The notes under the pieces: generated by a model | Database searches by the model: none | Told to the model about the DNA's origin: nothing | What the model saw: the letters and a program-made list of their open reading frames with translations, nothing else | Source: Mogibacterium sp. | GTDB taxonomy: Bacteria; Bacillota; Clostridia; Peptostreptococcales; Anaerovoracaceae | Assembly (NCBI GenBank): GCA_017404265.1 | Contig: JAFRCS010000006.1 | Span: 125,502 to 189,501 of the forward strand | Reading direction: 5' to 3' | Length of the DNA: 64,000 nt | Position numbers and translations under genes: made by a program | Shown: piece after piece, positions 5,841 through 32,359 of the stretch | Layout of the letters: each line of letters starts with the position of its first letter | Numbering within the stretch: the stretch's first letter is position 1

Positions 5841-5852
5841 TAAGGAGAGAAG

Positions 5853-14364: not shown

Positions 14365-14451
14365 ATGCAAAGCCTCCCTTACACCCGAATTGTAGCACAA
14401 AACAGGGCAGGCGCATAAAGAATTTAACAAAGCCGGAAAAGGTAGTTTTTG

Positions 14452-14481
14452 TTGAGAATACCTGGCCCGTGCAGATATAAT
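14452..14481 (+). promoter_or_regulatory. Putative promoter for rubrerythrin
   Basis: TTGAGA (14452..14457), 18-nt spacer, TATAAT (14476..14481), about 45 nt upstream of the rbr ATG. Confidence 0.4.
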
Positions 14482-14526
14482 AAACATGATACTAAGGGTC
14501 CAAGACAGAGATAAGGAGGAAATGTC

Positions 14527-15066
14527 ATGGCAAACAAATACGAAGGAACACAGACAGAAAAGAACCTGCAGGCCGCTTTCGCAGGCGAGTCACAGGCACG
14601 CAACAAGTACACCTATTTCGCTTCCAAGGCGAAGAAAGAAGGCTTTGAGCAGATCGCTGCGCTCTTCCAGAAGACTGCCGACAATGAGAAAGAGCATGCC
14701 AAGATGTGGTTCAAAGAGCTCGAAGGAATCGGCACAACAGCGGAGAATCTGTTGGCAGCTGCAGAAGGCGAGAACTACGAATGGACCGATATGTACGAGG
14801 GCTTTGCGAAAACAGCTGAAGAGGAAGGATTCAAGGCATTAGCAGGCAAGTTCCGCATGGTAGCGGCTATCGAGAAACATCATGAAGAACGTTACCGTGC
14901 TCTGCTGCACAATGTGGAGGCGCAGGAGGTCTTCGAAAAGAGTGAGGTCAAGGTTTGGGAGTGCCGCAATTGCGGACATATCGTTGTGGGCACCAAAGCT
15001 CCACAGATTTGCCCGGTATGCGCGCATCCGCAAGCCTATTTCGAAATCAACGCAGAGAATTATTAA
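14527..15066 (+). CDS. rbr: Rubrerythrin
   Basis: N-terminal ferritin-like di-iron domain ([38 protein letters not shown]). C-terminal rubredoxin-like CRNCGH...CPVC. Confidence 0.9.
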
Positions 15067-15086
15067 GAATACAAAAGGAGGTATCT

Positions 15087-15989
15087 ATGAAGGGAATAGT
15101 ACTTGCAGGAGGCGCCGGCACAAGGTTATATCCGCTCACGTTGGTGACATCGAAACAATTATTGCCGGTTTATGACAAGCCGATGATTTTCTATCCGCTG
15201 TCAACATTGATGCTTGCCAAGATCAGGGATATCCTGATTATCAGCACTCCGGAAGATACTCCGAGAATAGAAGAACTTCTGGGAGACGGCTCCAAGTTCG
15301 GAGTCAAGCTTTCATATGCTGTACAGGAAAAACCCGAAGGACTTGCCCAAGCATTTACTATAGGCCGTGAGTTTATAGGAGATGACTCCTGCGCGATGGT
15401 TCTTGGTGACAATATCTTCTATGGAAACGGACTTAACCATAAACTGATGGATGCCCGAAAAGATGCCGAGAAAGGGACCGCTACTATTTTTGGTTACTAC
15501 GTTCAGGATCCAAAGCGCTTTGGCATCATGGAATTCGAAAAGAGCACTGACAATGACCGGTCAGTTAAGGTCATCTCAGTCGAAGAGAAGCCTAAACAGC
15601 CAAAGAGCAACTACGCGATCGTTGGTCTGTATTTCTATCCTAAGGGCGTGAGCGACATGGCAGATAGGGTCACACCGTCCGCGCGCGGCGAGCTTGAGAT
15701 CACCACGCTCAACGACATGTATCTGCAACAGGGAAGACTGAACGCACAACTTCTTGGACGCGGCTATACCTGGATGGACGCTGGCACATTCGACAGTCTG
15801 CAGAAAGCCACTGACTTTGTCAGCATGATAGAGCAGTATCAAGGTATGACAATTTCTTCACCGGAGGAAATCGCGTATCACATGGGATGGATCGATGATG
15901 AGATGCTCGCAAAGAGTGTCAGACGTTACGGTAAGAGCCCATATGGTGAACGACTCAAAGCGGTACTCGAAGGAAAGGTCATAATCTAA
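15087..15989 (+). CDS. rfbA: Glucose-1-phosphate thymidylyltransferase
   Basis: MKGIVLAGGAGTRLYPLTLVTSKQLLPVYDKPMIFYPL..., GLAQAF, LGDNIFYG. The start is the ATG at 15087 after AAAGGAGG. The upstream part of the track ORF overlaps rbr and is spurious. Confidence 0.9.
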   Translation: MKGIVLAGGAGTRLYPLTLVTSKQLLPVYDKPMIFYPLSTLMLAKIRDILIISTPEDTPRIEELLGDGSKFGVKLSYAVQEKPEGLAQAFTIGREFIGDDSCAMVLGDNIFYGNGLNHKLMDARKDAEKGTATIFGYYVQDPKRFGIMEFEKSTDNDRSVKVISVEEKPKQPKSNYAIVGLYFYPKGVSDMADRVTPSARGELEITTLNDMYLQQGRLNAQLLGRGYTWMDAGTFDSLQKATDFVSMIEQYQGMTISSPEEIAYHMGWIDDEMLAKSVRRYGKSPYGERLKAVLEGKVII

Positions 15990-16127
15990 AATACAGATAA
16001 CAGCAGCCTGATCGATATAACTTTCTGCGAATCGTGGTTGCAATAATCTTACTGATAAAAACAAGGCAAAAGGACAGTCGCTGGATCAACAACCGGTCAG
16101 CGATGATATTTGTTGTGTGTCAACTAC

Positions 16128-16146
16128 CATTGTATTTAATACAATG
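16128..16146. promoter_or_regulatory. Perfect 9+1+9 palindrome upstream of the phosphonate operon (candidate operator)
   Basis: CATTGTATT-T-AATACAATG, located 39 nt upstream of the 16185 ATG. Confidence 0.3.
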
Positions 16147-16184
16147 ACAGACTCATATCCGAGTCAAAAACAGGAGGGTCGATA

Positions 16185-18194
16185 ATGAAAGCATTAATAC
16201 TCAATTCCGGACTTGGACATCGTATGGGAGTTCTTACATCTGAACAACCAAAGTGTATGACGGAGATCTCTGCAAGAGAAACTATCTTAAGCAGACAGCT
16301 GAGACTCCTTGCGGAAGCCGGGATCCAAAACGTTATCATGACCACCGGCTATTATGATTCGATTCTCGTAAATTACTGCAGGGAGTTGGATTATCCGCTC
16401 AACATCACTTTCGTGAACAATCCACTGTATGCAGAGACAAATTATATTTACTCGATATATTGTGCCAGGGAATATCTCGACGATGACATAGTTTTGATGC
16501 ACGGGGATGTAGTCTTTGAAGCTTCTGTACTTGATGACATCCTTGCTTTTGAAGGGAGCTGTATGAAAGTCAGCTCTACGACACCCCTTCCTGACAAAGA
16601 TTTCAAAGCTATAGTAAAGAACGGAATAGTCAAGGCGGTAGGGGTGGAGTATTTTGATTCCGCAATGGAAGCCCAGGCCCTATACAAATTGAACAAATCA
16701 GACTGGAAAATCTGGCTTGAAAAGATAACGGAGTACTGTGATGAAGGCAATACCGGCGTATATGCTGAGAACGCTCTTAATGAAGTGACCGATAGTTGTG
16801 TGATCCGCGCATACGATGTTCGCGAAAGGCTGTGCGCGGAAATCGATACACCGGAGGATCTTGCGGTAGTAAAGGCAAACCTTTCAGAGGTAGAGAACCG
16901 AATTGTTTATATGTGCTTCTCGACAGACATACTCCACAGTGGTCACATTGCCATAATCAAGAGAGCCTCGAAGTTGGGCAAGCTTGTTGTGGGCGTTCTC
17001 ACGGACGAAGTAATAGCGTCATACAAGAGATTTCCTTTGATTCCGTTTGAAGAAAGAAAAAGTCTATTTGAAAACATCAACTGTGTTGACAGAGTCATAG
17101 AGCAAGATACCCTGTCGTATTTAAAAGTTCTCAATGAACTGAGACCTGACTATGTAGTTCATGGAGATGACTGGCAGAGCGGATTTCAGAAGCCTATAAG
17201 AGACGAAGTCGTATCGGTCTTGGCTTCATATGGAGGAAAGTTGGTAGAATACCCGTACAACACGGATGATAAATATAAAGACATAGAATCAAGAACAAAA
17301 GCTGAATTAGCTATGCCTGACATAAGACGAGGAAGACTTCGGAGGATGCTTGAGACCAAAGGCTTAATAACCGCTATGGAAGCGCATGACGGCCTTACAG
17401 GACTGATAGTTGAGAATACAGTAGTCTATCAGCATGGTGAAGCAAGACAGTATGATGCCACTTGGGTCTCATCGCTTTGCGATTCGACAGCAAAAGGCAA
17501 GCCGGATATCGAGCTGGTCGATATGACTTCAAGATTCCGCACAATAGAAGACATCACCGAAGTGACCACTAAGCCTATCATTTTCGATGGAGACACCGGC
17601 GGCAAGACCGAACACTTTATATATACGGTAAGATCACTTGAAAGACTCGGAGTGTCTATGGTGATCATAGAAGACAAGACCGGTCTCAAAAAGAATTCAC
17701 TGTTTGGAACCGAGGTAAAACAGACTCAGGAATCGATCGAAAATTTCTGTGAGAAGATCAGGGCTGGCAAGAACGCTCAAAGAACAAAAGAATTCATGAT
17801 CTGCGCGAGGATAGAATCGCTTATCCTTGAAAGGGGTATGGACGATGCCCTCCAAAGAGCGTTTTCCTTCGTTGGCGCCGGAGCTGACGCTATCATGATA
17901 CATAGCCGAAAGAAAGATCCGGGTGAGATATTCGAGTTTATAGAGAAGTTCAGAGAAAAAGACAGATCAACGTATATCGTTCTGGTACCAACATCCTTCA
18001 ACTCAATTAAGGAAGAAGAGTGGAAAGAACGTGGTGCTAACATCGTTATTTATGCCAATCAGCTAATGCGGGCAACAGTTCCGGCTATTCAGGAAGCCGC
18101 AAAGACTATCCTTGAGTGTCATAGGGCAGAGGAATGCGACAGGATGCTGATGCCTTTCGAAGAGATCATAAGATTGATTCCTGCAGAAGAGTAG
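16185..18194 (+). CDS. ppm: Tri-domain fusion: LicC/PntC-like nucleotidyltransferase + HxGH cytidylyltransferase (TagD-like) + phosphoenolpyruvate phosphomutase
   Basis: aa 1-235: MKALILNSGLGHRMG (GxGxR NTP-transferase). aa ~236-375: IVYMCFSTDILHSGHIAIIKRASKLGKLVVGV (HxGH cytidylyltransferase fold). aa ~385-669: AMEAHDGLTGLIVE, WVSSLCDS, FDGDTGG, and the Ppm-specific EDKx5NS motif (IIEDKTGLKKNS, nt 17670..17699). Confidence 0.85.
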   Translation: MKALILNSGLGHRMGVLTSEQPKCMTEISARETILSRQLRLLAEAGIQNVIMTTGYYDSILVNYCRELDYPLNITFVNNPLYAETNYIYSIYCAREYLDDDIVLMHGDVVFEASVLDDILAFEGSCMKVSSTTPLPDKDFKAIVKNGIVKAVGVEYFDSAMEAQALYKLNKSDWKIWLEKITEYCDEGNTGVYAENALNEVTDSCVIRAYDVRERLCAEIDTPEDLAVVKANLSEVENRIVYMCFSTDILHSGHIAIIKRASKLGKLVVGVLTDEVIASYKRFPLIPFEERKSLFENINCVDRVIEQDTLSYLKVLNELRPDYVVHGDDWQSGFQKPIRDEVVSVLASYGGKLVEYPYNTDDKYKDIESRTKAELAMPDIRRGRLRRMLETKGLITAMEAHDGLTGLIVENTVVYQHGEARQYDATWVSSLCDSTAKGKPDIELVDMTSRFRTIEDITEVTTKPIIFDGDTGGKTEHFIYTVRSLERLGVSMVIIEDKTGLKKNSLFGTEVKQTQESIENFCEKIRAGKNAQRTKEFMICARIESLILERGMDDALQRAFSFVGAGADAIMIHSRKKDPGEIFEFIEKFREKDRSTYIVLVPTSFNSIKEEEWKERGANIVIYANQLMRATVPAIQEAAKTILECHRAEECDRMLMPFEEIIRLIPAEE

Positions 18195-18207
18195 TCCGGA
18201 GGGTCAA

Positions 18208-19170
18208 TTGATATACAGAGGCTTTGAAGAAAACAAAAGAATGCTCGAAGGGAAAAACCTGTTTTTGGTTTGCAGGGGCTCGTTTGACAGTCTTAAGATA
18301 GCGGGTTTTATCAAAGGCCTTGATTCATGTAGATTCAGCGGGTTTACTCCTAATCCGGGAAAAGAAGAAGTCATGGATGGAGTCGAGGCTTTTAAGGAAT
18401 CCGGATGTGACACCATACTCGCCGTCGGAGGAGGCAGTTCTATTGATGTAGCTAAATGCATAAAGCATTACAGCAAGTCTGAGGCACCTATCATCGCCAT
18501 ACCTACAACTGCAGGCACGGGAAGCGAGTCAACGCATTTTGCAGTTGTATATGAAAGCGGCAACAAGATTTCGGTCGCTGCTCCTGAACTTTTGCCGGAT
18601 ATAGTAATACTCGAGCCGTCAACGCTCCTCAGCGTTCCGGAGTATACACGCAAGGCCACTATGCTGGATGCTCTTTGCCACGCAATAGAATCGCATTGGG
18701 CAAAGAAAGCAACCAACGAGAGCCGGGAATACGCAGAAAAAGCGATAAAACTTATCCTTAAGGGTAAAGATGCCTATCTGGAAAATAAAGAAGAAGGCAA
18801 CGCCATTATGATGGATGCTGCTAATCTGGCAGGACAGGCGATCAACATATCGACCACAACTGCTGCCCATGCTATGTGCTATAAGATCACCGGCATGTAT
18901 GGATTCCAGCATGGCCATGCCGCCGCCATTTGCCTTCCTGAAGTATGGAAGCATATCGATGCTGCGCCGGGGATCACAATAGGAGAATTTAATGCTTTGC
19001 TTGAAGAACTCGGCATGGAGTATCCGGTGAGCGATGATGTTTCAAGAGATATAGAACGGCTGACCGACTCCGTAAATACACAAAGACTTTCTAACAATCC
19101 TGTCATTTTCAATAGAGAGCAGCTCGCAGTTATGTATGGAAATATAATCAGACAAAACAGGGACTGCTGA
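18208..19170 (+). CDS. Iron-containing (group III) alcohol dehydrogenase, candidate phosphonoacetaldehyde reductase
   Basis: GGGSSIDVAKC, LCHAIESHW, HAMCYKIT..FQHGHAAA (metal-binding His residues). TTG start at 18208, 4 nt after GGAGGG; an alternative ATG lies at 18241. At 320 aa it is shorter than the ~380 aa usual for this family. Confidence 0.7.
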   Translation: MIYRGFEENKRMLEGKNLFLVCRGSFDSLKIAGFIKGLDSCRFSGFTPNPGKEEVMDGVEAFKESGCDTILAVGGGSSIDVAKCIKHYSKSEAPIIAIPTTAGTGSESTHFAVVYESGNKISVAAPELLPDIVILEPSTLLSVPEYTRKATMLDALCHAIESHWAKKATNESREYAEKAIKLILKGKDAYLENKEEGNAIMMDAANLAGQAINISTTTAAHAMCYKITGMYGFQHGHAAAICLPEVWKHIDAAPGITIGEFNALLEELGMEYPVSDDVSRDIERLTDSVNTQRLSNNPVIFNREQLAVMYGNIIRQNRDC

Positions 19171-19198
19171 GCTGCTGAAACAGAAGACGGAGACGATA

Positions 19199-20317
19199 AT
19201 GAAAATAGAGACATTCGTAAAAATACTTGGTGCTGACTTTTATGCCGGCGTCCCTGATTCACAGCTGAAAGCCCTATGCAATTATCTTATAAACACATAT
19301 GGAACAGATGGCACACATCATATCATCGCTGCAAATGAGGGAAACTGTACTGCATTAGCAGCAGGCTACCATCTTGCAACGGGCAAGGTGCCTGTGGTTT
19401 ACATGCAGAATTCGGGCGAGGGCAACATAATCAATCCGGTCGCTTCATTGATGAATGACAAGGTCTACGGTATACCATGCATTTTCGTTGTTGGTTGGCG
19501 TGGTGAACCGGGCGTGAAGGATGAGCCTCAGCACAAATATCAGGGCGAAGTGACCATTAAGCTGCTTGAGGATATGGACATTTCCACCTATATAATAGGA
19601 GAACACACTACGGAAGAAGAACTCGAAGATGTGATGGAGGATTTCCGAGGCATGTTGGCTGCTGGCAAACAGGTAAGCTTCGTGGTTCGTAAGGGAGCTC
19701 TCGAATATGGAGGTGTCTCAAAGTACGCCAACGGCAATAAACTGATCAGAGAGGATGTTGTGCGCCATATAATCGATGTGACCGGCGATGATCCTATTGT
19801 TTCGACTACAGGAAAAACATCCAGAGAATTATTCGAGCTGCGAGTTTCACGCAACGAGACGCATGGACACGACTTTCTGACAGTTGGATCGATGGGACAC
19901 AGCTCATCGATCGCGCTTGGACTCGCAATGCAGAGGCCTGACAAAAAAGTCTGGATCATCGACGGTGATGGATCGATGCTGATGCACATGGGAAGCATGG
20001 CTCTTATAGGAGCCTATTTGCCAAAGAATATCGTGCACATCGTAATAAATAACAGCGCTCATGAAAGTGTAGGAGGGCAGCCTACGGTGGCCGGGCACAT
20101 GGATATAGCCAAAGTCGCAGAAGGTTGCGCTTATCCCAATGTAATTTCTGTAGATACACTTGAAAACCTTGATGCTGCACTTGAGGCTGCGAAAAGGAAA
20201 GATGAATTGACCTTCATAGAAGTAAAAAGCGCCATCGGAGCAAGAGACGATCTCGGAAGACCAACTACAAGTGCAAAAGAAAACAAGGAAAGCTTCATGA
20301 AAGAACTTATGAAATAA
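19199..20317 (+). CDS. ppd: Phosphonopyruvate decarboxylase (ThDP-dependent)
   Basis: Short (~370 aa) ThDP enzyme with YAGVPDSQL at the N-terminus and the ThDP motif IIDGDGSMLMHMGS...VINNSAHESVGG. It is adjacent to the PEP mutase, as in known phosphonate clusters. Confidence 0.85.
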   Translation: MKIETFVKILGADFYAGVPDSQLKALCNYLINTYGTDGTHHIIAANEGNCTALAAGYHLATGKVPVVYMQNSGEGNIINPVASLMNDKVYGIPCIFVVGWRGEPGVKDEPQHKYQGEVTIKLLEDMDISTYIIGEHTTEEELEDVMEDFRGMLAAGKQVSFVVRKGALEYGGVSKYANGNKLIREDVVRHIIDVTGDDPIVSTTGKTSRELFELRVSRNETHGHDFLTVGSMGHSSSIALGLAMQRPDKKVWIIDGDGSMLMHMGSMALIGAYLPKNIVHIVINNSAHESVGGQPTVAGHMDIAKVAEGCAYPNVISVDTLENLDAALEAAKRKDELTFIEVKSAIGARDDLGRPTTSAKENKESFMKELMK

Positions 20318-20328
20318 AGGAAACCATC

Positions 20329-21207
20329 ATGGAAGAAATGATACTTGTTAAAGACAAAAATGGCATTGAGTTTTATACTACTGAAAGCTATAGCATAGAA
20401 GACATCGAGAAGACCCAAAAGAAATCTGTCGAGATGATGTCTGTCATCGTTAATATTTTTGAAAAACATGGGATCGATTACATGATCGCACATGGTACGC
20501 TGCTTGGTCTGATAAGGCATAAAGGGTTTATTCCGTGGGACGATGACTGCGACCTGTTCGTCTTTGACTGGGATTATGCGCGGGCTATAGAGCTGCTGAG
20601 AAGAGAACTGCCTGACGATATGATCGTTCACAATCGAAGATCAGATCCGATATATTGGCCGGAATGGACAAAAATACGTGACCTTTACAGCGATACGTAT
20701 GAATCGCTTTGGGTAATAGACCGCAAATTCAAATATCACGGCATCTGCGTAGATATCCTGAAAGTCACGGTAGTGAACAAGTTCGAATACGAAAACGAAG
20801 AACAGATAGATATACTTAAAGACAGGCTAAAAGGAAGACAGAACAACAAGCATAAATATGCCGCGACACACTCTCTGTACAGATATTCAAAAAACATGGC
20901 AGGCATATTGATCGACAAAGGACGCCTTAACAAGCTGGAAAAAGAGAAAAAGCAGTCGACAAAAAAAGTCTGTATCGGCAACAAAGGAACGATTATAGAA
21001 TGTTTTTTTGATCTTGAGGATGCATTGCCGGTAAAAAAGATGGTCTTTGAAGGTGTCGAGGTGGCTGTTCCGAACAATCCGGATGGCGTACTGCATTCAA
21101 TGTACGGGGATTACATGAAAATGCCGGAGCTGAAAGACAGAAAACCTCATTTTGATAAAGTAATCTTTCTTGATAGAGAAGAAGAACACGGAAAACAGGA
21201 AAAATGA
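20329..21207 (+). CDS. licD: LicD-family phospho-headgroup transferase
   Basis: MIAHGTLLGLIRHKGFIPWDDDCDLFV (LicD DxD core). Size is typical (292 aa). Confidence 0.8.
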   Translation: MEEMILVKDKNGIEFYTTESYSIEDIEKTQKKSVEMMSVIVNIFEKHGIDYMIAHGTLLGLIRHKGFIPWDDDCDLFVFDWDYARAIELLRRELPDDMIVHNRRSDPIYWPEWTKIRDLYSDTYESLWVIDRKFKYHGICVDILKVTVVNKFEYENEEQIDILKDRLKGRQNNKHKYAATHSLYRYSKNMAGILIDKGRLNKLEKEKKQSTKKVCIGNKGTIIECFFDLEDALPVKKMVFEGVEVAVPNNPDGVLHSMYGDYMKMPELKDRKPHFDKVIFLDREEEHGKQEK

Positions 21208-23507
21208 CAGAAAAACCTAAGGTATCAGTCATATGTATCACATACGGGCATGAGGATCATATTGCGCAGGCTCTCGACAGTTTTCTGATGCAGAAAACGG
21301 AGTTTCCGTTTCAGATCTTAGTCGGAGAGGATAATGGCCCTGACAAAACTGCCGAGATCGTAAAGAACTATGCAGAAAAATACCCGGACAAGATCGTTCC
21401 TTTCATCCGCAAGGAGAGTATTGGAGCGCAAAGGAATCTGGTGGATCTGTGCAGGCGTGCGGAAACCGAGTACCTTGCATTTTGTGAGGGCGATGATTAC
21501 TGGATGGATGAATACAAACTACAAAAGCAATTCGATCTGATGGAAGCACATCCGGAGTATAATATGTGCTTTCATAACACCATGATAATGGCAGATCCAT
21601 CGTGGTATTTGTATGAATGCTATGACCGGGATGATAATGGCAGCATCGTCTTTCCAGGATCAATACCGGATTACGATACAACGCTTACCGAAATGAAGGC
21701 CGATAATTACATTAAGTACAGCCCGGCTCATTCATCATCAATGTTTTACAGATGGGATAACAGCAAGGAGATACCAGAGTGGTATTATACCCAAATATAC
21801 TGGGAACACTCACTGGTAATGATTCAGGTCGGGGACGGACTTATCGGTTATATTCCCGAAACGATGTCTGTCGGCGGGCTTTCAGAGGAAAGAGCGCCGG
21901 AGCATGAATCAAAGACAGATCTCTATATAAAAAGCCAGCAGAACCGGATAGAAATGGCCGTTGATATCGAGAGCTATTATTTAAGTCACTATGGTCTTTT
22001 TGCAAATTCAGAAATAAGAGACCGCATTGTCCACGAATTCAACGATTATATTCAATACATTATAAATACTGAGAATGATGATCTGTTAAGAGAAGCATAT
22101 ATAAAATATGCATATCCAGCCAGTCTGGCAATAGAAGCAAATTTAAGAAACCAATCAACTATCAATAAGTTAAAAAGTCTTTACTCTGAAAATGGCTTCC
22201 AAATGCTTATAACAGATAGTGACGTAAAAGAGGGGGTTTCAAAATTAATCGATAAAAGAAAAATCAAAAAGAAAGAAAAAATAAAAGAAAACATAAGAAA
22301 ACGATTAAACGCATATGTTAAAGATAACAAAGCGATCGAAGACAAAAAACTATGGGTCTTCAGTTATGATAACCAGTGGTACTATAGCGGAAATGTAAGG
22401 CATCTGTACGAATACATTCTGGCATATCACCCTGAAATCAGCGCTGTCTGGATCACAAGAAGCATAACGCTGACCAAACTGTTTGATTCTGAAGGAAAGC
22501 CATATGCAAAGATAGGAAGCGAAGAATGTAAGCATGTTTTGGAAAAGGCAGCGGTTGCTTTTGTCAACAACTACAAAATACTATCATTTGGTATAGAAGG
22601 GATCAATAAGAACACTAAGATCGTCCGGCTTGGAGACGGGATCCGGCCAGAAGGAAAAGAAAGGTTCAATGCATATCAGAGGGACCTGAGAACAGTTCCT
22701 TTTATTACAGCAGAAGAGATCATCAGTAAGCATCCGGAGAATTATGATAAAGAAATGCTCACGGAAGAAACACGAAGCTATTTCACAGAGGATTATCCAA
22801 ACACATTCCTTCAACTTGCAGAAAATGACAGGATGCTGCGGTTTTATAATGAAGTAATGGGTATTCCCGAGGAGGCGATCATAAAGTGCGTATCGCCAAG
22901 GTGCTTTGCTGTCAGGGAAAAACCGAAAGAAACAAATAACGTGATCGCTCTGTGTCCCGGCTTCAGAGCAAGGGTGTCAGATCAAATAGAATACGCGGAC
23001 GCTTTATTAAAAAATATTGACAGCATCAATGCTTTTCTTGAAAAAGAGGACTGCTTCCTCAGGATCATGATCCCTAACGACTATTATCATGAAGTAAGAG
23101 AAAAATTGCAGAAAGGAACAGACCGGTTCCCAAGAATGGAAGTCAGCGAGCCGGCAGAAGATCTGTTCTCCGAACTGATCAATATCGATGCAATGATAAC
23201 GGACTGGTCATCAGCAATGTTTGACTTTGCATTACAGAATAAGCCGGTCGTTTTATTGAATCCGGATAAGATTGAACAGGATGTCCCTGGCGGTATGCTG
23301 TATAAACTTGACGAAGTCGCGCCGGGGGCAAAGGCAGATGACTGGGAAGAGGCTCTGAATATGATTCTGGAAAGAATGAATGATCCGGATATTGACAGCG
23401 ATAAGAGAAGAAAAACTGTGGAAACAATTTATGATACAGCTGTCAATGGTGATAAGGATCTCGAATGTATCGTTACAGAGATAAAGCAGCGCCTTGACAT
23501 CCAATAA
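21204..23507 (+). CDS. Fusion of GT2 glycosyltransferase (N-terminal) and TagF-like CDP-glycerol glycerophosphotransferase (C-terminal)
   Basis: N-terminus: KVSVICITYGHEDHIAQALDSFL...VGEDNGPDKT...CEGDDYW (GT-A fold, DxD). C-terminus: ALCPGFRA... and ITDWSSAMFDFALQNKPVVLL (TagF family). The start overlaps the licD stop (ATGA). Confidence 0.75.
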   Translation: MTEKPKVSVICITYGHEDHIAQALDSFLMQKTEFPFQILVGEDNGPDKTAEIVKNYAEKYPDKIVPFIRKESIGAQRNLVDLCRRAETEYLAFCEGDDYWMDEYKLQKQFDLMEAHPEYNMCFHNTMIMADPSWYLYECYDRDDNGSIVFPGSIPDYDTTLTEMKADNYIKYSPAHSSSMFYRWDNSKEIPEWYYTQIYWEHSLVMIQVGDGLIGYIPETMSVGGLSEERAPEHESKTDLYIKSQQNRIEMAVDIESYYLSHYGLFANSEIRDRIVHEFNDYIQYIINTENDDLLREAYIKYAYPASLAIEANLRNQSTINKLKSLYSENGFQMLITDSDVKEGVSKLIDKRKIKKKEKIKENIRKRLNAYVKDNKAIEDKKLWVFSYDNQWYYSGNVRHLYEYILAYHPEISAVWITRSITLTKLFDSEGKPYAKIGSEECKHVLEKAAVAFVNNYKILSFGIEGINKNTKIVRLGDGIRPEGKERFNAYQRDLRTVPFITAEEIISKHPENYDKEMLTEETRSYFTEDYPNTFLQLAENDRMLRFYNEVMGIPEEAIIKCVSPRCFAVREKPKETNNVIALCPGFRARVSDQIEYADALLKNIDSINAFLEKEDCFLRIMIPNDYYHEVREKLQKGTDRFPRMEVSEPAEDLFSELINIDAMITDWSSAMFDFALQNKPVVLLNPDKIEQDVPGGMLYKLDEVAPGAKADDWEEALNMILERMNDPDIDSDKRRKTVETIYDTAVNGDKDLECIVTEIKQRLDIQ

Positions 23508-23604: not shown

Positions 23605-24549
23605 TTATTTCTCTTCCTTGCTGAATAGCTCTTTGTAGTCCGCGCCTGAAAGAATACCAAACACCAGGACTCCGATCGTACACAGAATAGTGATCGGATT
23701 CAGCAGAGCGTAATTCTTGAAGAATACTACCGCGATTATTACGGCCCAGGCGGAATATGTGATATTCAAAGCCATGGACTTGGACGCTCCGATTTGCGAA
23801 ATAGCTCTGTAGTAGAAGAGATATGATACTGTTGCGCTAAGAGCGGCAATAGCAATCGTTGGGATCAGCATTCCGGTTCCGCTGAAGAGGCTTATCGTGA
23901 AGCCCCATCCTTTCAGCAGAGGGAGAAGTATCAGTCCATATACGAGCGCCGAAGTGGTCTGACGGATCTGAAGAGCAAGGTCGTCTGTGACCAGCGGATC
24001 CTGAACACACTTCGCGATGATGACAGCTTCGATACCCCAGCCGAATGAGCACATGAGAGCACCGAGTACGCCCAGCCAGAAATTCTTGATGCTGAGGTCA
24101 GGTGAATAGCTCAGACCATATACTCCAAGCAGAGTAAGGATCAGGAAAACCCAACGATACCAGCGCATTTCCTCTTTGAGGAAATAATGCGCTATTACTG
24201 CGCCTATAGCAGGGAACATCGCTGTCGATACCGCGCCAATGGAAGCGCCCATGTTAGCAACCGCCATTACATAGCCGGTCATGCCGATCGGGCCGCCGAT
24301 GACTGCCGCCAGAGCAACAAACTTGCCGCTTCTGGTCTTGAACGCCCTTACCAGATCCGGAAGCCTACCCCTGAAACCGTTATACGCGCATGCCCATATC
24401 GCGGAAAAAGCGTCGTGGATAAAAGTTGATACGAAAGGAGCTAAAAAGATTGCCTGTTCCGTCGATACAAAAGGTGTCATAGCAAGCGCGATACCAATGA
24501 TCGTCGTTTCTATTCCCCAGGTTAGACCTGCCATTATTCCTGCAAACAT
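23605..24549 (-). CDS. licB: DMT-superfamily transporter, LicB-like (putative choline permease)
   Basis: About 10 predicted TM helices. Segments resemble my recollection of pneumococcal LicB: FIHDAFS, GGPIGMTGYVMAV, MFPAIG, WGIEAV, QIRQTTSAL, SYLFYYRAI, LNITYSAWAVIIAVVF. It lies directly downstream of a choline-kinase gene. Confidence 0.65.
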   Translation of the reverse strand: MFAGIMAGLTWGIETTIIGIALAMTPFVSTEQAIFLAPFVSTFIHDAFSAIWACAYNGFRGRLPDLVRAFKTRSGKFVALAAVIGGPIGMTGYVMAVANMGASIGAVSTAMFPAIGAVIAHYFLKEEMRWYRWVFLILTLLGVYGLSYSPDLSIKNFWLGVLGALMCSFGWGIEAVIIAKCVQDPLVTDDLALQIRQTTSALVYGLILLPLLKGWGFTISLFSGTGMLIPTIAIAALSATVSYLFYYRAISQIGASKSMALNITYSAWAVIIAVVFFKNYALLNPITILCTIGVLVFGILSGADYKELFSKEEK

Positions 24550-24567: not shown

Positions 24568-25482
24568 CTAACCAAGCTTTTTATAAGCTTCGATATTGTT
24601 CTTGAGTCTCAGATATCTTCCGTCCGCGTATTCTTGCATGAAATCGCCGTCAAACGGAACGCGGGTAAGACCCCACAGAGTCCACAGATAATCAACATAG
24701 AGCTTTGCTGCTATGAAATACTTCTTCTCTTCAAGGGATGGCTCTCTCTGATAGTAATCCAGAAGGAGTTCCGCTTCCTGCTCTTCGTTATAACCGATCT
24801 CTATGGAAAGGCAGGAAAGATCCCACATAGCCTCGTTCATGCCGGAATACTCCCAGTCGATCAGATACAGCTTGCCGTTCTTATCAAGAACCCAGTTGCC
24901 GATTAGGGAATCGTTATGGCATGGTACGCGAGGGATAGGTCCGTTGGCGTCAACAGATGCCTTGATATCCATGACAGTCTGCTTAACTTCATCATAGTCA
25001 TCATAGAAAGCAACTCCGCCGTCACGAATGATCTTTTCATACAGGTCAGCCATTTCGAAAACTTCAAATTTAACTCCTGTGTCTACTCCGCAGGTGTGCA
25101 GCTTACGGAAGATGTCCGCTGCCTGTTTGATATTTTCACTTCTGCACATTACCTCTTCGGTCATAGGCTGCGGGTCATCAATAAAACGCATGACCTTACG
25201 TCCATCATCTCCAAAATACAAAAGTTCGGAATCTATACCCAGACTGCAGGCAAGCTCCGTGCTCTTTCTCTCGTCATCTCTGACGATCATCTCCTCGGTG
25301 CCTTCTCCCGGGATCCTTACAAGATACTCGTTTCCGTCCGCGCGGGTAACCCTGTAAGAATGATTAGTCATTCCACCAAGACGGCAGATATCGACGTACT
25401 CATCATCCTCAAAAACGGAACCAAGCAACGCTTTGACCTTAGGAAGGTCAGAATCTTCAATTTCTCTGATTAATTCAGCCAT
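24568..25482 (-). CDS. licA: Choline/ethanolamine kinase (LicA-like, APH fold)
   Basis: GMTNHSYRV, Brenner motif CHNDSLIGNW, and the choline-kinase motif LIDWEYSGMNEAMWDL. Confidence 0.8.
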   Translation of the reverse strand: MAELIREIEDSDLPKVKALLGSVFEDDEYVDICRLGGMTNHSYRVTRADGNEYLVRIPGEGTEEMIVRDDERKSTELACSLGIDSELLYFGDDGRKVMRFIDDPQPMTEEVMCRSENIKQAADIFRKLHTCGVDTGVKFEVFEMADLYEKIIRDGGVAFYDDYDEVKQTVMDIKASVDANGPIPRVPCHNDSLIGNWVLDKNGKLYLIDWEYSGMNEAMWDLSCLSIEIGYNEEQEAELLLDYYQREPSLEEKKYFIAAKLYVDYLWTLWGLTRVPFDGDFMQEYADGRYLRLKNNIEAYKKLG

Positions 25483-25726: not shown

Positions 25727-27493
25727 ATGACCAGAAATGAGTTTAATCTGCTTTACGCAATTAAGAAGTACGGAATACAGAGCTACAGAAAAATGAAAGA
25801 TATGGCCTTTGTTTCAGTTGGATATGTGTCTCAGACAATGAAATCCTTCTCTGAACAGAACTATATCGACGATAACGGCATAACAGAACTTGGGATGCAG
25901 GCGCTGCTGCCGTACAAAGTCGATTCAGCGGTTATCATGGCGGCGGGAATGTCCACCCGCTTTGTTCCGCTTTCCCTGGAGAAGCCGAAGGGCTTGCTTG
26001 AAGTTAAGGGCGAGGTACTTATTGAGCGCCAGATAAAACAACTGAAAGAGGCAGGCATAGAGAATATAGCCATCGTTCTGGGATACAAGAAAGAAGCGTT
26101 TTTTTATCTTGAGGATAAATACGATGGCATCAAAATAATCATCAATCCGGAATATAATACCAAAAACAACACACATACTTTGTATTTGGCTCAAAACTGC
26201 ATTAAGAACACTTATATTTGCTCCTCTGACGACTACTTCGTAGAAAATCCTTTTGAGGAGTATGTATATCAGTCATATTACGCGGCCATTCACGTAAAAG
26301 AAAAAACCAATGAATGGTATATGATCCCGGACAAGAAGGGCAACATATCCAAGGTAAGACTCTGCGGAGAAGAAGGCGATATAATGCTGGGCCATGTGTA
26401 CTGGGACAGAGAGTTCAGCGCCGCAATGTTGGGAATACTCAACGCGGATCATGAAATAGGCAATTACGATCAGTCGCTTTGGGAGCAGATTCTGATGGAG
26501 AATGTCAAAGAGCTGCCTCCAATGGAGATAAAGGTCTATCCGGACGATGTCATCTTCGAATTCGATTCACTTGATGATCTCCGTAAGTTCGATGCCAGTT
26601 ATATCAACAATACTCACAGCAGGATAATGAAGAATATCACTTCCTGCCTGAATTGTAATGAAGAGGATATTCTCAACCTTAAACCGATCAAGGAAGGAAT
26701 AACCAATACATCATTCGCCTTTGAGGTCAACAGGAAAAAGTATGTCTACAGGCATCCGGGCGAGGGGACAGAAGCTTTTATTTCACGCAAAGATGAAAAG
26801 AAAGCTCTGGAGCTTGCCAAACTTATAGGGGCTGATCCTACATTTATATATATGGATGACAACGAAGGATGGAAACTCTCAGAATATGTTGAAGAGAAAA
26901 GAGCACCTGATTATGGATCGGCAGATGATTCGAAAAGAGTCATTGGAGTAATGAAGACGCTGCATCAGCACGAGCTTCCTGACGGAAGAACCTTCAGCCC
27001 ATGGGAAGAAACGGGAAAACTGGAAGAACTTCTGCGCTCAGAGAAAGGCGGCATTGCCGATAAAGAATTCGATCAGCTTAAAGCCGATGTCGAAAAATGC
27101 TATAAGAAAACGATCGGAGACGGGGTAGAGACAAGGTTCTGTCACTGCGATACTTACGCGCAGAACTGGATGCTCACAGACAAAGGAGAGACGATACTGA
27201 TCGACTGGGAGTACGCGGGCAACGCCGATCCGGGCTGTGATCTGGGAGCATATATCATGGATTCCATGTGGGATATTCCGGACGCGGAGGCATTCATCAA
27301 AGAGTATTGCGGGAGTGAATATAATGATACTCTCAGATTCCATTATTTGGCATATACGGCAATCCTGTCATATTACTGGTATGTGTGGGCGCTCTACCGT
27401 GAGGCAAGAGGAGCGATAATGGGAGAGAGCCTTTATAACTGGCGCGTTATGGCAAGACGCTATAGTAAATACCTGTTAGAAAAATACAAATAA
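25727..27493 (+). CDS. Fusion: small N-terminal wHTH-like domain + LicC-like (choline-phosphate) cytidylyltransferase + LicA-like kinase
   Basis: aa 1-60: helix-rich, MarR-like (weak call). aa ~65-300: AVIMAAGMSTRFVPLSLEKPKGLLEV (LicC-type NTP transferase). aa ~310-588: GITNTSFAF, CHCDTYAQNW, LIDWEYAGNADPGCDL (choline kinase). Confidence 0.8.
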   Translation: MTRNEFNLLYAIKKYGIQSYRKMKDMAFVSVGYVSQTMKSFSEQNYIDDNGITELGMQALLPYKVDSAVIMAAGMSTRFVPLSLEKPKGLLEVKGEVLIERQIKQLKEAGIENIAIVLGYKKEAFFYLEDKYDGIKIIINPEYNTKNNTHTLYLAQNCIKNTYICSSDDYFVENPFEEYVYQSYYAAIHVKEKTNEWYMIPDKKGNISKVRLCGEEGDIMLGHVYWDREFSAAMLGILNADHEIGNYDQSLWEQILMENVKELPPMEIKVYPDDVIFEFDSLDDLRKFDASYINNTHSRIMKNITSCLNCNEEDILNLKPIKEGITNTSFAFEVNRKKYVYRHPGEGTEAFISRKDEKKALELAKLIGADPTFIYMDDNEGWKLSEYVEEKRAPDYGSADDSKRVIGVMKTLHQHELPDGRTFSPWEETGKLEELLRSEKGGIADKEFDQLKADVEKCYKKTIGDGVETRFCHCDTYAQNWMLTDKGETILIDWEYAGNADPGCDLGAYIMDSMWDIPDAEAFIKEYCGSEYNDTLRFHYLAYTAILSYYWYVWALYREARGAIMGESLYNWRVMARRYSKYLLEKYK

Positions 27494-27610: not shown

Positions 27611-29014
27611 ATGAAGAAAAGTAGTTTATTAGTATTGCTGCTGTCAATGGCTATGGTGATGACATCGGTAATGTGCTCTTTTGCTGAGTCAGAAGCAACG
27701 GAAAATACGGACGGAGAAGTTGTGGCTGCTGAAGAGCAGGCAACTGTTGAGGCGCCTGTTGTTGAGGAACCAGCTGCTGAAGAGCCGGCAAACGTTGAAG
27801 CGCCTGCTGCTGAAGAACCAGTTGCTGAAGAACCGGCAAAGGATGCTACGGAAGAACCGGCTGCTTTGAGAGGCGGAAAAACAGGCTGGGATCAGGACGA
27901 ATACGGCTATTGGTACTATTACGAAAACGACAATATGGTATACGGCTGGAAGAGTATCAAAGGCTATTGGTACTACTTCGATAAAAAAGACGGATATATG
28001 TATTCCGACATCTGGGATGAGATTAACGGCAAGTATTATTACTTCGATAATTCCGGACATATGAAGACCGGATGGGTCAAGGATGTCAAAGGCTACGGGG
28101 ATGGTGCCTGGTATTACTTTAGCTCCGGAGGAGCAATGTGTGTTGGCTGGCTAAAGATTGGCGGTGCTTGGTATTACTTCGATGAGTACATAGATGAAGA
28201 TGACGATTACCTTTACGGCCAGATGGCAAACGGCATTTGGTGGAATAATAAAGCTGAAAAGGCTTATCTGTTCGGAAGCAATGGAAAGTGGCAGAGCGGA
28301 TTTACAGGTTGGAAGAGCGAAACTTACACCTATGATGGAACTAAGTACACCGATTGGTACTATTTCAAGAAGGGAACAGGTATTAACGGCTTTCAGAAGT
28401 TTAGCAATAAATGGTATTATTTCGACGGAGGTTGGATGCTTGCCGACAATTGGTTGTCTTACAAAGGCTATTGGTACTACTTCGATAAGTCCGGAGTCAT
28501 GAAGACCGGCTGGCTCAAAGATACCTGGACTGATGAAGAAGAGGGAGTAACTTATATTACTTGGTATTACTTCAAGTCGAATGGAGCAGAAGCCTTCGGT
28601 TGGCAGAAAATCAGTGGCAAATGGTATTACTTCGATGAAGAAGACGGATATATGTATTCCGACTTCTGGGATGAGATTAATGGCAATTATTATTACATCG
28701 ATAAGTCCGGAGTCATGAAGACCGGCTGGCTCAAAGATACCTGGACTGATGAAGAAGAAGGAGCAACTTATATTACTTGGTATTACTTCAAGTCGAATGG
28801 AGCAGAAGCCTTCGGTTGGCAGAAAATCAGTAACAAATGGTATTACTTCGATAAAGAAGACGGATATATGTATGCCAATGCATGGGCAGAGGATTCTAAA
28901 GGGTGGTATTACATGGATGAAGACGGCCACTGCGTCACAAACAAGACTATAGAGATCGATGGCGAAGAATATACATTCGGCAGCGATGGAATATGCTTGA
29001 ATCCGCCATTCTAA
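27611..29014 (+). CDS. Secreted cell-wall/choline-binding-repeat protein (CW_binding_1 type)
   Basis: Signal peptide, an (A/V)EEPA linker repeated about 5 times, then about 17 copies of the ~20-aa GW..(W/Y)YYF...G.M.TGW repeat. It ends ...GICLNPPF. Confidence 0.85.
   Translation: MKKSSLLVLLLSMAMVMTSVMCSFAESEATENTDGEVVAAEEQATVEAPVVEEPAAEEPANVEAPAAEEPVAEEPAKDATEEPAALRGGKTGWDQDEYGYWYYYENDNMVYGWKSIKGYWYYFDKKDGYMYSDIWDEINGKYYYFDNSGHMKTGWVKDVKGYGDGAWYYFSSGGAMCVGWLKIGGAWYYFDEYIDEDDDYLYGQMANGIWWNNKAEKAYLFGSNGKWQSGFTGWKSETYTYDGTKYTDWYYFKKGTGINGFQKFSNKWYYFDGGWMLADNWLSYKGYWYYFDKSGVMKTGWLKDTWTDEEEGVTYITWYYFKSNGAEAFGWQKISGKWYYFDEEDGYMYSDFWDEINGNYYYIDKSGVMKTGWLKDTWTDEEEGATYITWYYFKSNGAEAFGWQKISNKWYYFDKEDGYMYANAWAEDSKGWYYMDEDGHCVTNKTIEIDGEEYTFGSDGICLNPPF
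28485..28852 (+). repeat. Tandem coding duplication, 216-bp period
   Basis: 28485..28636 and 28701..28852 are 152-nt copies that differ at about 4 positions by eye. Confidence 0.8.
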
Positions 29015-29030
29015 AACATTAATGATAGAA

Positions 29031-29062
29031 GTGGGGGGCTGTAAAGGCCCCTTACTTTTTTT
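29031..29062 (+). terminator. Rho-independent terminator (first copy of a conserved inter-CBP cassette)
   Basis: G/C-rich hairpin ggggct-gtaaa-ggcccc with a flanking extension, then a 7-T run. Confidence 0.55.
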
Positions 29063-29151
29063 AGTTTAATGTGGATTTACAACAATGCTGTAAAATGATA
29101 ATCTCCAAAAGGTAACAGATATCATTAACCAAGCCAAACAGGGAGAACAAG

Positions 29152-30732
29152 ATGAAAAGGAAAAGCTTACTGGTATTATTGCTGTCGGTTATGATGGTGC
29201 TGTCTCCGGCACTTTGCGCTTTTGCTGATTCAGAAGCAACGGATAATGCGGGTGAAGGTCAGCAGCAGGAAGTTGTGGTCGATCTCACCGAAGAGGAAGA
29301 CGCTCCTGAAACCATTGAGGATCCTGTGGCTGAAGAAAAAGCCATTGAGGAAGCAGATAAAGCATCGGAAGAGCAACCTGTTATGAGGGGCGAGCCAAAA
29401 GACTCAGGCTGTTCACATATAAACAAAGACACTTATGTTGACTGGAATAGCGATGAAGTTCAAATCGAAGAGATCGAAGGTGATGACTGCTATCACAGAG
29501 TTATTGGCGATATATACATTGTCACATACTGCGAAGATTGTGGTGAAGACCTCAAATGGACTCCATATGGAGATAATGAAATCTTAGCTAGCCATGATTA
29601 TGGCAGCAATCATGTTTGTACGCTCTGCGGCCATGTGAACGGATGCAAACATAAAAAGACTTATGTATGGTATGACTATGATGAAGTTGAAATCACTGAT
29701 GATGAGAATGGCGATACCCACAGCGTCACAGGCTATATAACCAGAAAAACCACTTGCAAATACTGTGAGGAAGACCTGGAGACAGAGAACCTTGGTTATA
29801 CGACTGTACATGAAGAACACGACTATGTGAGTGGTGTCTGCGATTTATGCGGACACAAGAGGAACGAAAATTGGGCAAATAATGGAACCTATTACTACGA
29901 TGCGAACGGAAAGCTGGCAAAGGGCTGGAAAAAGATTGACGGCGAATGGTACTACTTCGATAAGTCCAGCGGCGTAAAGAAAACAGGATGGCTCAAAGAC
30001 GGCAGCTATTGGTATTACTTAGATCCGGCTGTATCGGAAATCAGCGGAGTCTCCGGCGCCATGGCAATCGGCTGGAAAAAAATCAGCAAGAAGATGTATT
30101 ACTTCGACAGCTCAGGAAAAATGAAGACAGGCTGGCTCAAATTGACCCATACTGATGAAGACGGAGAAACATATACTGACTGGTATTACTTAAACTCGAG
30201 CGGAGCACAGCTCTTTGGCTGGCAAAAGATCAGCAATAAGTGGTACTACTTCGAAGAGAACTACTTCGAAGATGACTATGACGAAGATGACTATGATGCT
30301 GGATACATGGCGACAGGGATCTGGTATGTCGATAATGTGGAAAAGGCTTATCTGTTTGGCAGCAACGGCGTGTGGCAGAGCGGATTTACAGGCTGGAAGA
30401 GTGAAACTGTCATCTTTGGCGATGGAGACAAATACACGTATTGGTACTACTTCAAGAAAGGCGTAGGTGTTAACGGCTGGCAGAAGATCAGCAATACCTG
30501 GTATTGCTTCGAAGACGGTTATATGCTTGCAGATACATGGGCTTCTGACAGCAGCGGAGAGTACTGGCTGGGCAGCAACGGCAAGATCACCAAAAATAAA
30601 TGGATCAAAGACTATAATGGAAATTGGCGTTACATGGGCTCAAACGGCCATCCGGTATGCAATAAATGGATCAAGGATTCAAAAGGCTGGTGTTACCTGG
30701 ATGAAAATGGCATCATGGTCACCAACGGCTGA
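29152..30732 (+). CDS. Secreted cell-wall-binding-repeat protein with two Cys/His-rich modules; ends at an in-frame TGA
   Basis: Signal peptide MKRKSLLVLLLSVMMVLSPALCAFA, acidic linker, 2 CxH...CxxCG...CxxCGH modules, then CW repeats. The stop at 30730..30732 sits where paralogues have Trp. Confidence 0.8.
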   Translation: MKRKSLLVLLLSVMMVLSPALCAFADSEATDNAGEGQQQEVVVDLTEEEDAPETIEDPVAEEKAIEEADKASEEQPVMRGEPKDSGCSHINKDTYVDWNSDEVQIEEIEGDDCYHRVIGDIYIVTYCEDCGEDLKWTPYGDNEILASHDYGSNHVCTLCGHVNGCKHKKTYVWYDYDEVEITDDENGDTHSVTGYITRKTTCKYCEEDLETENLGYTTVHEEHDYVSGVCDLCGHKRNENWANNGTYYYDANGKLAKGWKKIDGEWYYFDKSSGVKKTGWLKDGSYWYYLDPAVSEISGVSGAMAIGWKKISKKMYYFDSSGKMKTGWLKLTHTDEDGETYTDWYYLNSSGAQLFGWQKISNKWYYFEENYFEDDYDEDDYDAGYMATGIWYVDNVEKAYLFGSNGVWQSGFTGWKSETVIFGDGDKYTYWYYFKKGVGVNGWQKISNTWYCFEDGYMLADTWASDSSGEYWLGSNGKITKNKWIKDYNGNWRYMGSNGHPVCNKWIKDSKGWCYLDENGIMVTNG

Positions 30733-30924: not shown

Positions 30925-30938
30925 ACCAATAACAGAAG

Positions 30939-30968
30939 AGGGGGTCTGAAAAGGCCCCTTACTTTTTT
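30939..30968 (+). terminator. Rho-independent terminator (second copy of the conserved cassette)
   Basis: agggggtc-tgaaaa-ggcccctt hairpin followed by TTTTTT. Confidence 0.55.
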
Positions 30969-32347: not shown

Positions 32348-32359
32348 AGCAATGATTCA

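Follow-up and report, generated by a model that had tools for sequence, protein, structure and literature searches.

A predicted hydroxyethylphosphonate pathway headed by a nucleotidyltransferase-fused phosphoenolpyruvate mutase in a Mogibacterium wall-polymer locus

A phosphonate operon within a wall-polymer locus

The window analyzed here is a 64,000-nucleotide (nt) stretch of contig JAFRCS010000006.1 from Mogibacterium sp., in which domains were called with Pfam, applied to open reading frames (ORFs) of at least 150 amino acids (aa), and with NCBIfam equivalog models. An earlier note on this DNA described five co-directional, closely packed ORFs headed by a phosphoenolpyruvate (PEP) mutase gene and predicted that they serve a phosphonate-decorated wall polymer. 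The five ORFs are present at 16185-23507, all on the plus strand and tightly spaced:

16185-18194, + strand: gene 1, triple fusion of nucleotidyltransferase (NTase), cytidylyltransferase (CyTase) and PEP mutase (Ppm) domains, 669 aa
18208-19170, + strand: compact Fe-alcohol dehydrogenase (ADH), TTG start, 320 aa (Fe-ADH 2.9e-33, plus ADH_Fe_C)
19199-20317, + strand: phosphonopyruvate decarboxylase (Ppd), 372 aa (TPP_enzyme_N/C, TIGR03297)
20329-21207, + strand: LicD, 292 aa (Pfam LicD 9.3e-33)
21204-23507, + strand: gene 5, fusion of a family 2 glycosyltransferase (GT2) and a TagF-like domain, 767 aa (Glycos_transf_2 7e-17, Glyphos_transf 1.4e-20)

The first four genes are separated by gaps of 13, 28 and 11 nt, and the licD stop and the start of gene 5 share a 4-nt ATGA overlap, so the coordinates, spacing and overlap are as first described. 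A GGAGG-like ribosome-binding site precedes all five starts, and 21 independent metagenome contigs give identical gene calls, the 320-aa ADH among them. LicD shares 100% identity with a protein from a Mogibacterium sp. metagenome-assembled genome, in keeping with a host from the Clostridia, family Anaerovoracaceae. The motifs EDKx5NS, GDGS...NN and PWDDDCD also translate as claimed, and an arrangement of five genes carrying them is far beyond chance. None of the five proteins has a predicted transmembrane segment, which places the chemistry of the operon in the cytoplasm, ahead of export by the TagGH system encoded downstream. A promoter scan gave a weak promoter-like site at 16117-16145; promoter and terminator counts were not above shuffled expectation, and no convincing internal terminator was seen. 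An Rfam scan of the window detected no riboswitch or other RNA family.

Gene 1 joins two nucleotidyltransferase domains to a PEP mutase

Gene 1 is divided as follows:

16185-16889, + strand: domain 1, PntC/LicC/IPCT-type nucleotidyltransferase (aa 1-235; NTP_transf_3)
16890-17279, + strand: domain 2, Fom1-type cytidylyltransferase predicted to act on 2-hydroxyethylphosphonate (HEP) (aa 236-365; CTP_transf_like, HSGH)
17310-18194, + strand: domain 3, PEP mutase (aa 376-669; PEP_mutase, PF13714, 1.9e-51)

The signature EDKTGLKKNS of domain 3, which fits EDKx5NS, is encoded exactly by nt 17670-17699, and the full stretch IIEDKTGLKKNS by 17664-17699. The domain scores 395.7 bits against TIGR02320, above the equivalog cut-off of 319.55 bits, and hydrolase and lyase models fall far under their own cut-offs. 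Aligned to Mytilus Ppm (1m1b), the domain keeps the catalytic Asp, Lys, Asn, Ser, Arg and His, in the motifs DxDTG, EDK..K.NS, ARxE and HS(K/R). Judged by model score and active-site residues, domain 3 is a bona fide PEP mutase, as proposed from the motif.

The earlier note had postulated nucleotidyl activation of the phosphonate, and overlooked that it is built into gene 1 itself, where the N-terminal 365 aa comprise two NTase domains. The middle domain matches the CyTase domain of Fom1 (5x3d) with 137 bits (E 2.7e-39; 124 aligned residues, ~57% identity), compared to 44 bits for TagD (1coz) and 52 bits for ECT. This domain is thus far closer to Fom1 than to TagD and is not expected to be a CDP-glycerol synthase; the candidate role of a TagD supplying CDP-glycerol was ruled out on these scores. 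Fom1 is a biochemically characterized HEP cytidylyltransferase, as cited in PMC6697681. Its identity to the middle domain, together with the neighboring ADH gene, suggests that the latter is specific for HEP. Fusions of PF01467 domains to Ppm are also known from 2-aminoethylphosphonate (AEP) clusters, for example in B. fragilis (PMC8942020).

An AlphaFold model of the N-terminal domain (pLDDT 88.8) has PntC 6pd2 as its best match in the PDB (TMq 0.85), followed by IPCT (0.80) and LicC (0.78). Over 72 homologues, 22% of its positions are invariant, versus 21.5% for the middle domain, and both LNSGxGxRMG (GxGxR) and HGD are among the invariant elements. Because the N-terminal domain is conserved as well as the middle domain, it is probably an active nucleotidyltransferase. 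The acidic residue that contacts the amine (Glu104 in PntC, Asp in LicC) is replaced by an invariant His (MHGD), which leaves its substrate uncertain. An AEP transaminase was considered as the reason for a second NTase and rejected: the window encodes none, and just 3 of 80 related loci have an AEPT-like gene nearby.

Two relatives of the N-terminal domain occur in other settings. One is a stand-alone protein of 245 aa with 40% identity (L170, 17618-18355), with an MFS transporter and an ADH-LicD fusion as neighbors. The other is 29% identical and forms part of an NTP_transf_3 + Aminotran_1_2 fusion that lies between YidC/TagF pairs (L173, 7943-9778). Public annotation of the gene 1 fusion reads 'phosphoenolpyruvate mutase' and nothing else, which hides the two activating domains.

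The decarboxylase and the alcohol dehydrogenase

Ppd, encoded by the second gene after ppm, scores 456.4 bits against TIGR03297 (equivalog cut-off 312.5 bits) and carries the GDGS...NN motif. With Ppm and Ppd both above their equivalog cut-offs, the claim that these two enzymes begin a biosynthetic pathway is upheld. The gene between them encodes a group-III Fe-ADH that retains GGGS and the Asp/His/His/His metal ligands in alignment with solved Fe-ADHs; it is compact, with two internal deletions and a short N-terminus. Of 74 related loci, 67 have a member of this ADH family after the fusion gene. This ADH is predicted to be a phosphonoacetaldehyde reductase that yields HEP. PhpC-type enzymes are described as very divergent (PMC13576164).

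The fusion-ADH-Ppd cassette is widespread in gut bacteria

A scan of one genome per species recovered 281 stretches that encode relatives of the cassette; the best 80 were kept, of which 74 could be analyzed for neighboring genes. These best 80 are 65-86% identical to gene 1 over its full 669 aa. Represented among them are Lachnospiraceae, Oscillospiraceae, Ruminococcus and Mogibacterium, Negativicutes (Selenomonas, Anaerovibrio), ten metagenome-assembled genomes (MAGs) labeled Bacteroidales, Bacteroidaceae, Prevotellaceae or Bacteroides, and one Gastranaerophilales MAG, four phyla in all. Most carriers derive from the gut of a ruminant, rabbit, horse or mouse. Carriers in culture include Ruminococcus flavefaciens 007c, Selenomonas caprae mPRGC8, Anaerovibrio slackiae, Butyrivibrio sp. 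DSM 10294 and Lachnospiraceae LC2019, which makes the prediction directly testable. The value of the system lies mainly in this testability and in its very wide distribution (281 species-level genomes, four phyla).

The order fusion-ADH-Ppd is kept in ~85% of loci, with the order Ppd-ADH in Bacteroidales, and Ppd was found in 63 of the 74 related loci. The neighbors vary among flippases, GT2 and GT4 glycosyltransferases, sugar-nucleotide enzymes, LicD and TagF-like proteins, and every one of the 74 loci is a surface-glycan or teichoic-type locus. A conserved cassette with changing glycan neighbors points to a precursor-supply module that is plugged into different surface-glycan loci. We propose that the fusion-ADH-Ppd cassette is mobile and horizontally shared. 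A similarly foreign ppm/ppd cluster is known from the genome of a rumen methanogen (PMC4987999). In two of the loci (L081/L082, 12104-14191), the compact cassette ADH is fused to an Aminotran_5 domain resembling AEP transaminase.

LicD and gene 5 belong to a conserved polymer module

LicD carries PWDDDCD, and its GTLLGxxRHxxxIPWDDDxD region aligns with the catalytic region of FKRP (6kaj). Its only NCBIfam match is the diacylglycerol cholinephosphotransferase Mf1, at 84.5 bits against a cut-off of 225 bits. Orthologues of LicD (53-68% identity) were found in six other loci (L084-L086, L170-L172), always paired with a GT2-TagF protein (37-50% identity to gene 5). The usual companions of this pair are rmlA, an epimerase/dehydratase, DegT, ATP-grasp and a GT2 of ~490-590 aa, all of which are also encoded in the window. 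The relevant genes flank the operon on both sides:

15087-15989, + strand: rmlA, glucose-1-phosphate thymidylyltransferase, 300 aa (TIGR01207 427.9, cut-off 360.65)
44637-45920, + strand: ATP-grasp protein (Pfam)
45924-47693, + strand: GT2 (Pfam)
47706-48821, + strand: DegT aminotransferase (Pfam)
48823-49632, + strand: TagG (ABC2_membrane)
49656-50381, + strand: TagH (ABC_tran)

Homologues of rmlA (53-66% identity) adjoin LicD/GT2-TagF in L084-L086, L091-L093, L170 and L171, and homologues of the 44637-50381 genes do so in L084-L086 and L170-L172. By this synteny, the genes at 44637-50381 form one conserved polymer module with LicD and GT2-TagF.

In four of the six orthologue loci (L084, L085, L086 and L172), the LicD/GT2-TagF pair abuts Ppm, Ppd and ADH genes; one of the four, a Coriobacteriales MAG, has the order fusion-Ppd-ADH-LicD-GT2/TagF-TagG-TagH. 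A fifth locus, L170, has an ADH-LicD fusion and the stand-alone homologue of the N-terminal NTase domain as its sole phosphonate links. No choline genes were found in any of the six. The pair thus lies beside phosphonate genes in lineages that lack choline genes, which agrees with the LicD-type transfer predicted in the earlier note. In L170, the cassette-type ADH is joined to LicD in one protein (14431-16473), a Rosetta-stone fusion. Such ADH-LicD fusions are 680-726 aa long, and the copy in L081 (18322-20502, minus strand) is degenerate, with GGGS and the metal ligands lost. Among the related loci as a whole, 19 have a LicD gene and 17 a TagF-like gene no more than 3 kb from the fusion gene, and only two have both, which suggests two alternative families of transferase.

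The choline module appears to be a separate head-group system

Downstream of gene 5, the window encodes choline genes and choline-binding proteins, followed by a TagF-like protein (TagF418) and two fusions of a YidC domain to an alkaline-phosphatase (AP) fold:

23605-24549, - strand: licB-like EamA protein (Pfam)
24568-25482, - strand: licA (Pfam)
25727-27493, + strand: licC-licA fusion (Pfam)
27611-34861: four successive choline-binding/cell-wall-binding repeat proteins of 467, 526, 426 and 783 aa, between the choline genes and TagF418
35017-36273, + strand: TagF418 (Pfam), TagF-like, ~410 aa; the family keeps two invariant His
36289-39063, + strand: first YidC/AP-fold fusion, ~925 aa
39077-41866, + strand: second YidC/AP-fold fusion, ~925 aa

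In L173 and L174, homologues of TagF418 and YidC/AP (48-59% identity) occur together with licC, licA and licB homologues (48-74% identity), and there is no LicD. A choline unit without LicD looks self-contained, which would leave the LicD of the window for HEP. We conclude from this synteny that the choline module adjoining the phosphonate operon is probably a separate head-group system, and that TagF418 and YidC/AP are probably an alternative pair for head-group installation, here for phosphocholine. A combination of a TagF418-type protein with YidC immediately borders the phosphonate cassette in six loci that have no LicD. In L051, the TagF418 and YidC/AP pair flanks the cassette. In L023, L046, L047, L050 and L054, YidC-TagF418-like fusions of 636 aa are encoded immediately before the Ppm fusion gene, and the fused YidC domain replaces the N-terminal hydrophobic segment of the TagF418 type. 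TagF418-type proteins and YidC may therefore represent a general second route of head-group installation.

The YidC/AP proteins consist of an N-terminal YidC/Oxa1 insertase domain, about eight further transmembrane segments and a C-terminal ectodomain of the alkaline-phosphatase/'sulfatase' fold. The family has at least 5,900 members (E<=1e-20), annotated merely as 'membrane protein insertase YidC', and with TagF-like proteins it may form a three-component system for extracytoplasmic head-group decoration. The YidC domains of the two window paralogues (first 230 residues; 36289-36978 and 39077-39766) are 97% identical, versus 40% for the transmembrane region and 49% for the ectodomain. Identity confined to the YidC part suggests either recent gene conversion or constraint limited to that part.

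Predicted pathway from PEP to a HEP-decorated wall polymer

The operon can be read as one route from central metabolism to the cell surface. The Ppm domain would convert PEP to phosphonopyruvate, and Ppd would pull this reaction forward by decarboxylating the product to phosphonoacetaldehyde. The compact Fe-ADH would then give HEP, which the Fom1-type middle domain of gene 1 would use with CTP to form CMP-HEP. The soluble LicD, translationally coupled to the GT2/degenerate-TagF protein, would transfer the HEP-phosphonyl group onto a hydroxyl of a sugar in the lipid-linked precursor of a wall polymer at the cytoplasmic face, and TagGH (48823-50381) would export the polymer. The choline genes would feed a second, separate route through TagF418 and the YidC/AP proteins, which would anchor the four choline-binding-repeat proteins.

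From the domain identities, intact motifs, conservation and synteny that are observed in the window and in its relatives, we consider it likely that the operon encodes a pathway from PEP to CMP-HEP with a surface, wall-glycopolymer destination. We infer HEP as the product, LicD as its transferase, the acceptor and the division between two head-group routes. On balance, we favor LicD as the HEP transferase, since its orthologues adjoin phosphonate genes in the absence of choline genes, and the choline genes travel with the other pair.

Several observations weigh against this pathway. The second, equally conserved NTase domain of gene 1 has no assigned substrate in it. The fold, NAD motif and metal ligands of the ADH bear out the group-III assignment made in the earlier note, but the protein scores 137 bits (E 6.4e-40) against the curated phosphonate Fe-ADH model TIGR03405, whose cut-off is 423.7 bits. 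None of 20 cassette ADHs does better than E 1.8e-45 against this model, and all fall far under the cut-off. The role of the ADH is therefore assigned by context. LicD is the sole LicD in the window, where a search for a second found none, and the window also needs a phosphocholine transferase. One of the six orthologue loci, L171, has the LicD/GT2-TagF pair and no phosphonate gene within 10 kb, indicating that the pair is not strictly dedicated to phosphonates. Moreover, the closest relatives of the cassette (L001, L081 and L083) have other, larger LicD proteins or none nearby.

A further difficulty concerns gene 5. Its domains and its overlap with licD are those described in the earlier note, with a GT2 domain at aa ~1-230 that looks intact and a TagF-like PF04464 domain at aa ~380-740. 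The TagF-like half, however, lacks both catalytic His motifs, namely WHG and the second His before the DYSS motif. Gene 5 has LGDG and its orthologues LGTG or LGLG, with no second His, in a region where the alignment is of low identity and moderately secure. In contrast, four other TagF proteins of the window keep WHGTPLK and the H(P/H/Y) motif. The TagF-like half gave no sequence match to solved TagF. With the His motifs missing, gene 5 should not be called a glycerophosphotransferase. A profile scan of metagenomes with GT2-TagF returned four full-length remote fusions and many GT2-only matches, and a scan with the single GT2-TagF sequence returned none.

Alternative roles for LicD and for HEP

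LicD1 and LicD2 are the phosphocholine transferases of pneumococci. By analogy, the LicD of the window could transfer phosphocholine for the choline module next to it, and HEP would be installed by an enzyme of the TagF family, TagF418 with YidC/AP or another TagF of the locus. A lone LicD beside licA, licB and licC genes and four choline-binding-repeat proteins invites this view, as does L016, in which LicD-LicC/A lies directly upstream of the fusion gene. In addition, a TagF-like gene lies immediately upstream of the cassette in at least 10 LicD-less loci, six of them of the TagF418 type with YidC. We nevertheless regard this arrangement as unlikely, because licD is translationally coupled to an operon headed by ppm, because choline genes accompany LicD orthologues in 0 of 6 loci and phosphonate genes in 4 of 6, and because in L173 and L174 the choline genes travel with TagF418 and YidC/AP as a unit that has no LicD.

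HEP bears both a hydroxyl and a phosphonate, and could also lie within the polymer chain. LicD would esterify the phosphonate of HEP to a sugar and GT2 would glycosylate its hydroxyl, giving a poly(glycosyl-hydroxyethylphosphonate), or 'phosphono-teichoic acid'. The constant pairing and translational coupling of LicD and GT2 would suit such a chain, the non-catalytic TagF-like domain on GT2 could be a polymer-binding scaffold, and the window has no tagD. Against this, the four canonical TagF proteins, GDPD and TagGH point to an ordinary polyol-phosphate chain, and neither the remote GT2-TagF fusions (L090-L093) nor L171 have phosphonate genes nearby. For the Mogibacterium locus, we judge an in-chain HEP improbable.

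In a third scheme, the product would be a phosphonolipid or a modified glycolipid or lipoteichoic acid anchor, and LicD would act on an acceptor of the diacylglycerol type. This would fit Mf1 as the sole NCBIfam match of LicD (84.5 bits), and the presence of alkaline-phosphatase-fold membrane proteins, typically users of lipid donors, in the locus and beside the L051 cassette. Selenomonas ppm clusters rich in sulfatases have also been assigned to phosphonolipids (PMC8942020). The Mf1 score is far under its 225-bit cut-off, however, no CDP-alcohol phosphatidyltransferase is encoded among the annotated window ORFs, and the genes conserved alongside encode glycosyltransferases, sugar-nucleotide enzymes and TagGH, making this scheme very improbable.

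A diffusible, fosfomycin-like phosphonate or a catabolic cluster would share the Fom1-like CyTase-Ppm, Ppd and Fe-ADH, which are the early steps of fosfomycin biosynthesis (PMC6697681), or a PhpC-type ADH able to act catabolically (PMC13576164), but both are essentially excluded: in the window, the cassette has no neighboring gene of the Fom3/Fom4/FomD, HEPD/MPnS, peptide-ligase, exporter or PhnX/PhnW/PhnY/PhnA type, Ppm and Ppd set the biosynthetic direction, and the neighbor families that recur across the 74 related loci are those of surface glycans, without any of these types. The prediction of a surface polymer instead of a diffusible antibiotic is thereby supported, with glycan or teichoic-type genes at 74 of 74 loci and no Fom3-, Fom4- or HEPD-type genes.

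Relationship to known phosphonate and choline systems

The pathway from PEP to CMP-HEP via phosphonopyruvate, phosphonoacetaldehyde and HEP resembles the opening of fosfomycin biosynthesis in Streptomyces wedmorensis, where Fom1 (CyTase-Ppm), Fom2 (Ppd) and FomC (Fe-ADH) act in this order. In both, the CyTase is N-terminal to Ppm in one protein, and the two CyTase domains are ~57% identical. The window differs in lacking the Fom3 methyltransferase, FomD and the Fom4 epoxidase, in the extra PntC-like domain at the front of the fusion, and in the placement of the cassette inside a wall-polymer locus (LicD, glycosyltransferases, TagGH) of a gut anaerobe. The Pnt pathways of Atopobium rimae, Olsenella uli and Treponema denticola (PMC6697681) share the NTase-fused Ppm, the LicD and glycosyltransferase genes nearby and the predicted cell-surface destination. 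They lead to AEP through an AEP transaminase, in place of which the window has an Fe-ADH predicted to lead to HEP.

The HEP phosphonoglycans of Glycomyces and Stackebrandtia (Yu et al. 2014, as cited in PMC8942020 and PMC13576164; MIBiG BGC0000806) are likewise described as made via Ppm, Ppd and a PhpC-type ADH, with HEP ester-linked to a polysaccharide. The likeness is one of published description. Those polymers are Actinomycete exopolysaccharides and are not reported to have a TagF/TagGH teichoic-type context. The pneumococcal lic system (LicB, LicA, LicC, LicD1/2) offers a further parallel in its head-group supply, activation with CTP and LicD transfer to a lipid-linked teichoic-acid precursor, and the window operon has lic genes and choline-binding-repeat proteins beside it. 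It differs in that the head group of the window would be made de novo with a C-P bond, and in that the choline genes apparently go with the TagF-like/YidC-AP pair and not with LicD.

The architecture is already catalogued and the pathway is of a known kind. According to Rice et al. 2019 (PMC6697681), a nucleotidyltransferase is joined to Ppm in ~60% of Ppm proteins and 42 (2.8% of Ppm) are uncharacterized triple fusions, with LicD among the neighbors, and the HEP branch makes up 8.5% of ppm neighborhoods (Li & Horsman 2022, PMC8942020). The novelty attached to the locus in the earlier note was therefore overstated. The steps past nucleotidyl activation in surface phosphonate pathways have been called enigmatic (PMC6697681). 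Our literature search found no characterized triple fusion, LicD phosphonyl transferase or phosphonate-bearing teichoic acid, and no phosphonate-bearing teichoic-type polymer of a Firmicute.

Genes for HEP catabolism were lately reported in rumen Fibrobacteria, with the source of HEP left open (PMC13576164). If the predicted pathway operates, a HEP producer in the rumen would be identified. A broader idea is that the widespread gut and rumen cassette leads to 'phosphono-teichoic acids', with HEP in-chain or as one of two differently activated head groups from the two NTase domains, installed by LicD-type enzymes or by TagF-like proteins with YidC/AP. We hold this idea to be unlikely; if it were true, much of the HEP in the environment could stem from herbivore-gut bacteria, a source so far overlooked.

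Other features of the window

Six TagF-like genes are present in the window, gene 5 and five others, four of which have the canonical WHG motif, together with TagGH and GDPD. A stand-alone tagD was looked for in the window, and nothing other than the Fom1-like domain was found. The glycerol-phosphate polymer named as the acceptor in the earlier note is at most a candidate. No match to tagO (PF00953) or an LCP ligase occurs among the annotated window ORFs; tagD, tagO and the ligase may be encoded in another part of the genome. Nor do the annotated ORFs include a gene of the radical-SAM, dioxygenase, PhnX/PhnW or CDP-alcohol phosphatidyltransferase types. Directly after tagH, 50390-53512 encodes a 1040-aa protein with two TagF-like domains; in alignment, the N-terminal domain keeps WHG and the C-terminal one apparently does not. 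At the end of the locus (59263-61895), a gene for an MBOAT membrane acyltransferase is followed by one for an AlgX/SGNH-like protein, and the two resemble a pair for O-acylation of the polymer.

The jag/khpB, gyrB and gyrA genes at 337-8366 indicate an origin-proximal region, and the cumulative GC skew climbs steadily along the window. The G+C content is 0.55-0.56 in the 4-8 kb bins (gyrB, gyrA) and 0.41-0.48 over the polymer locus (12-36 kb).

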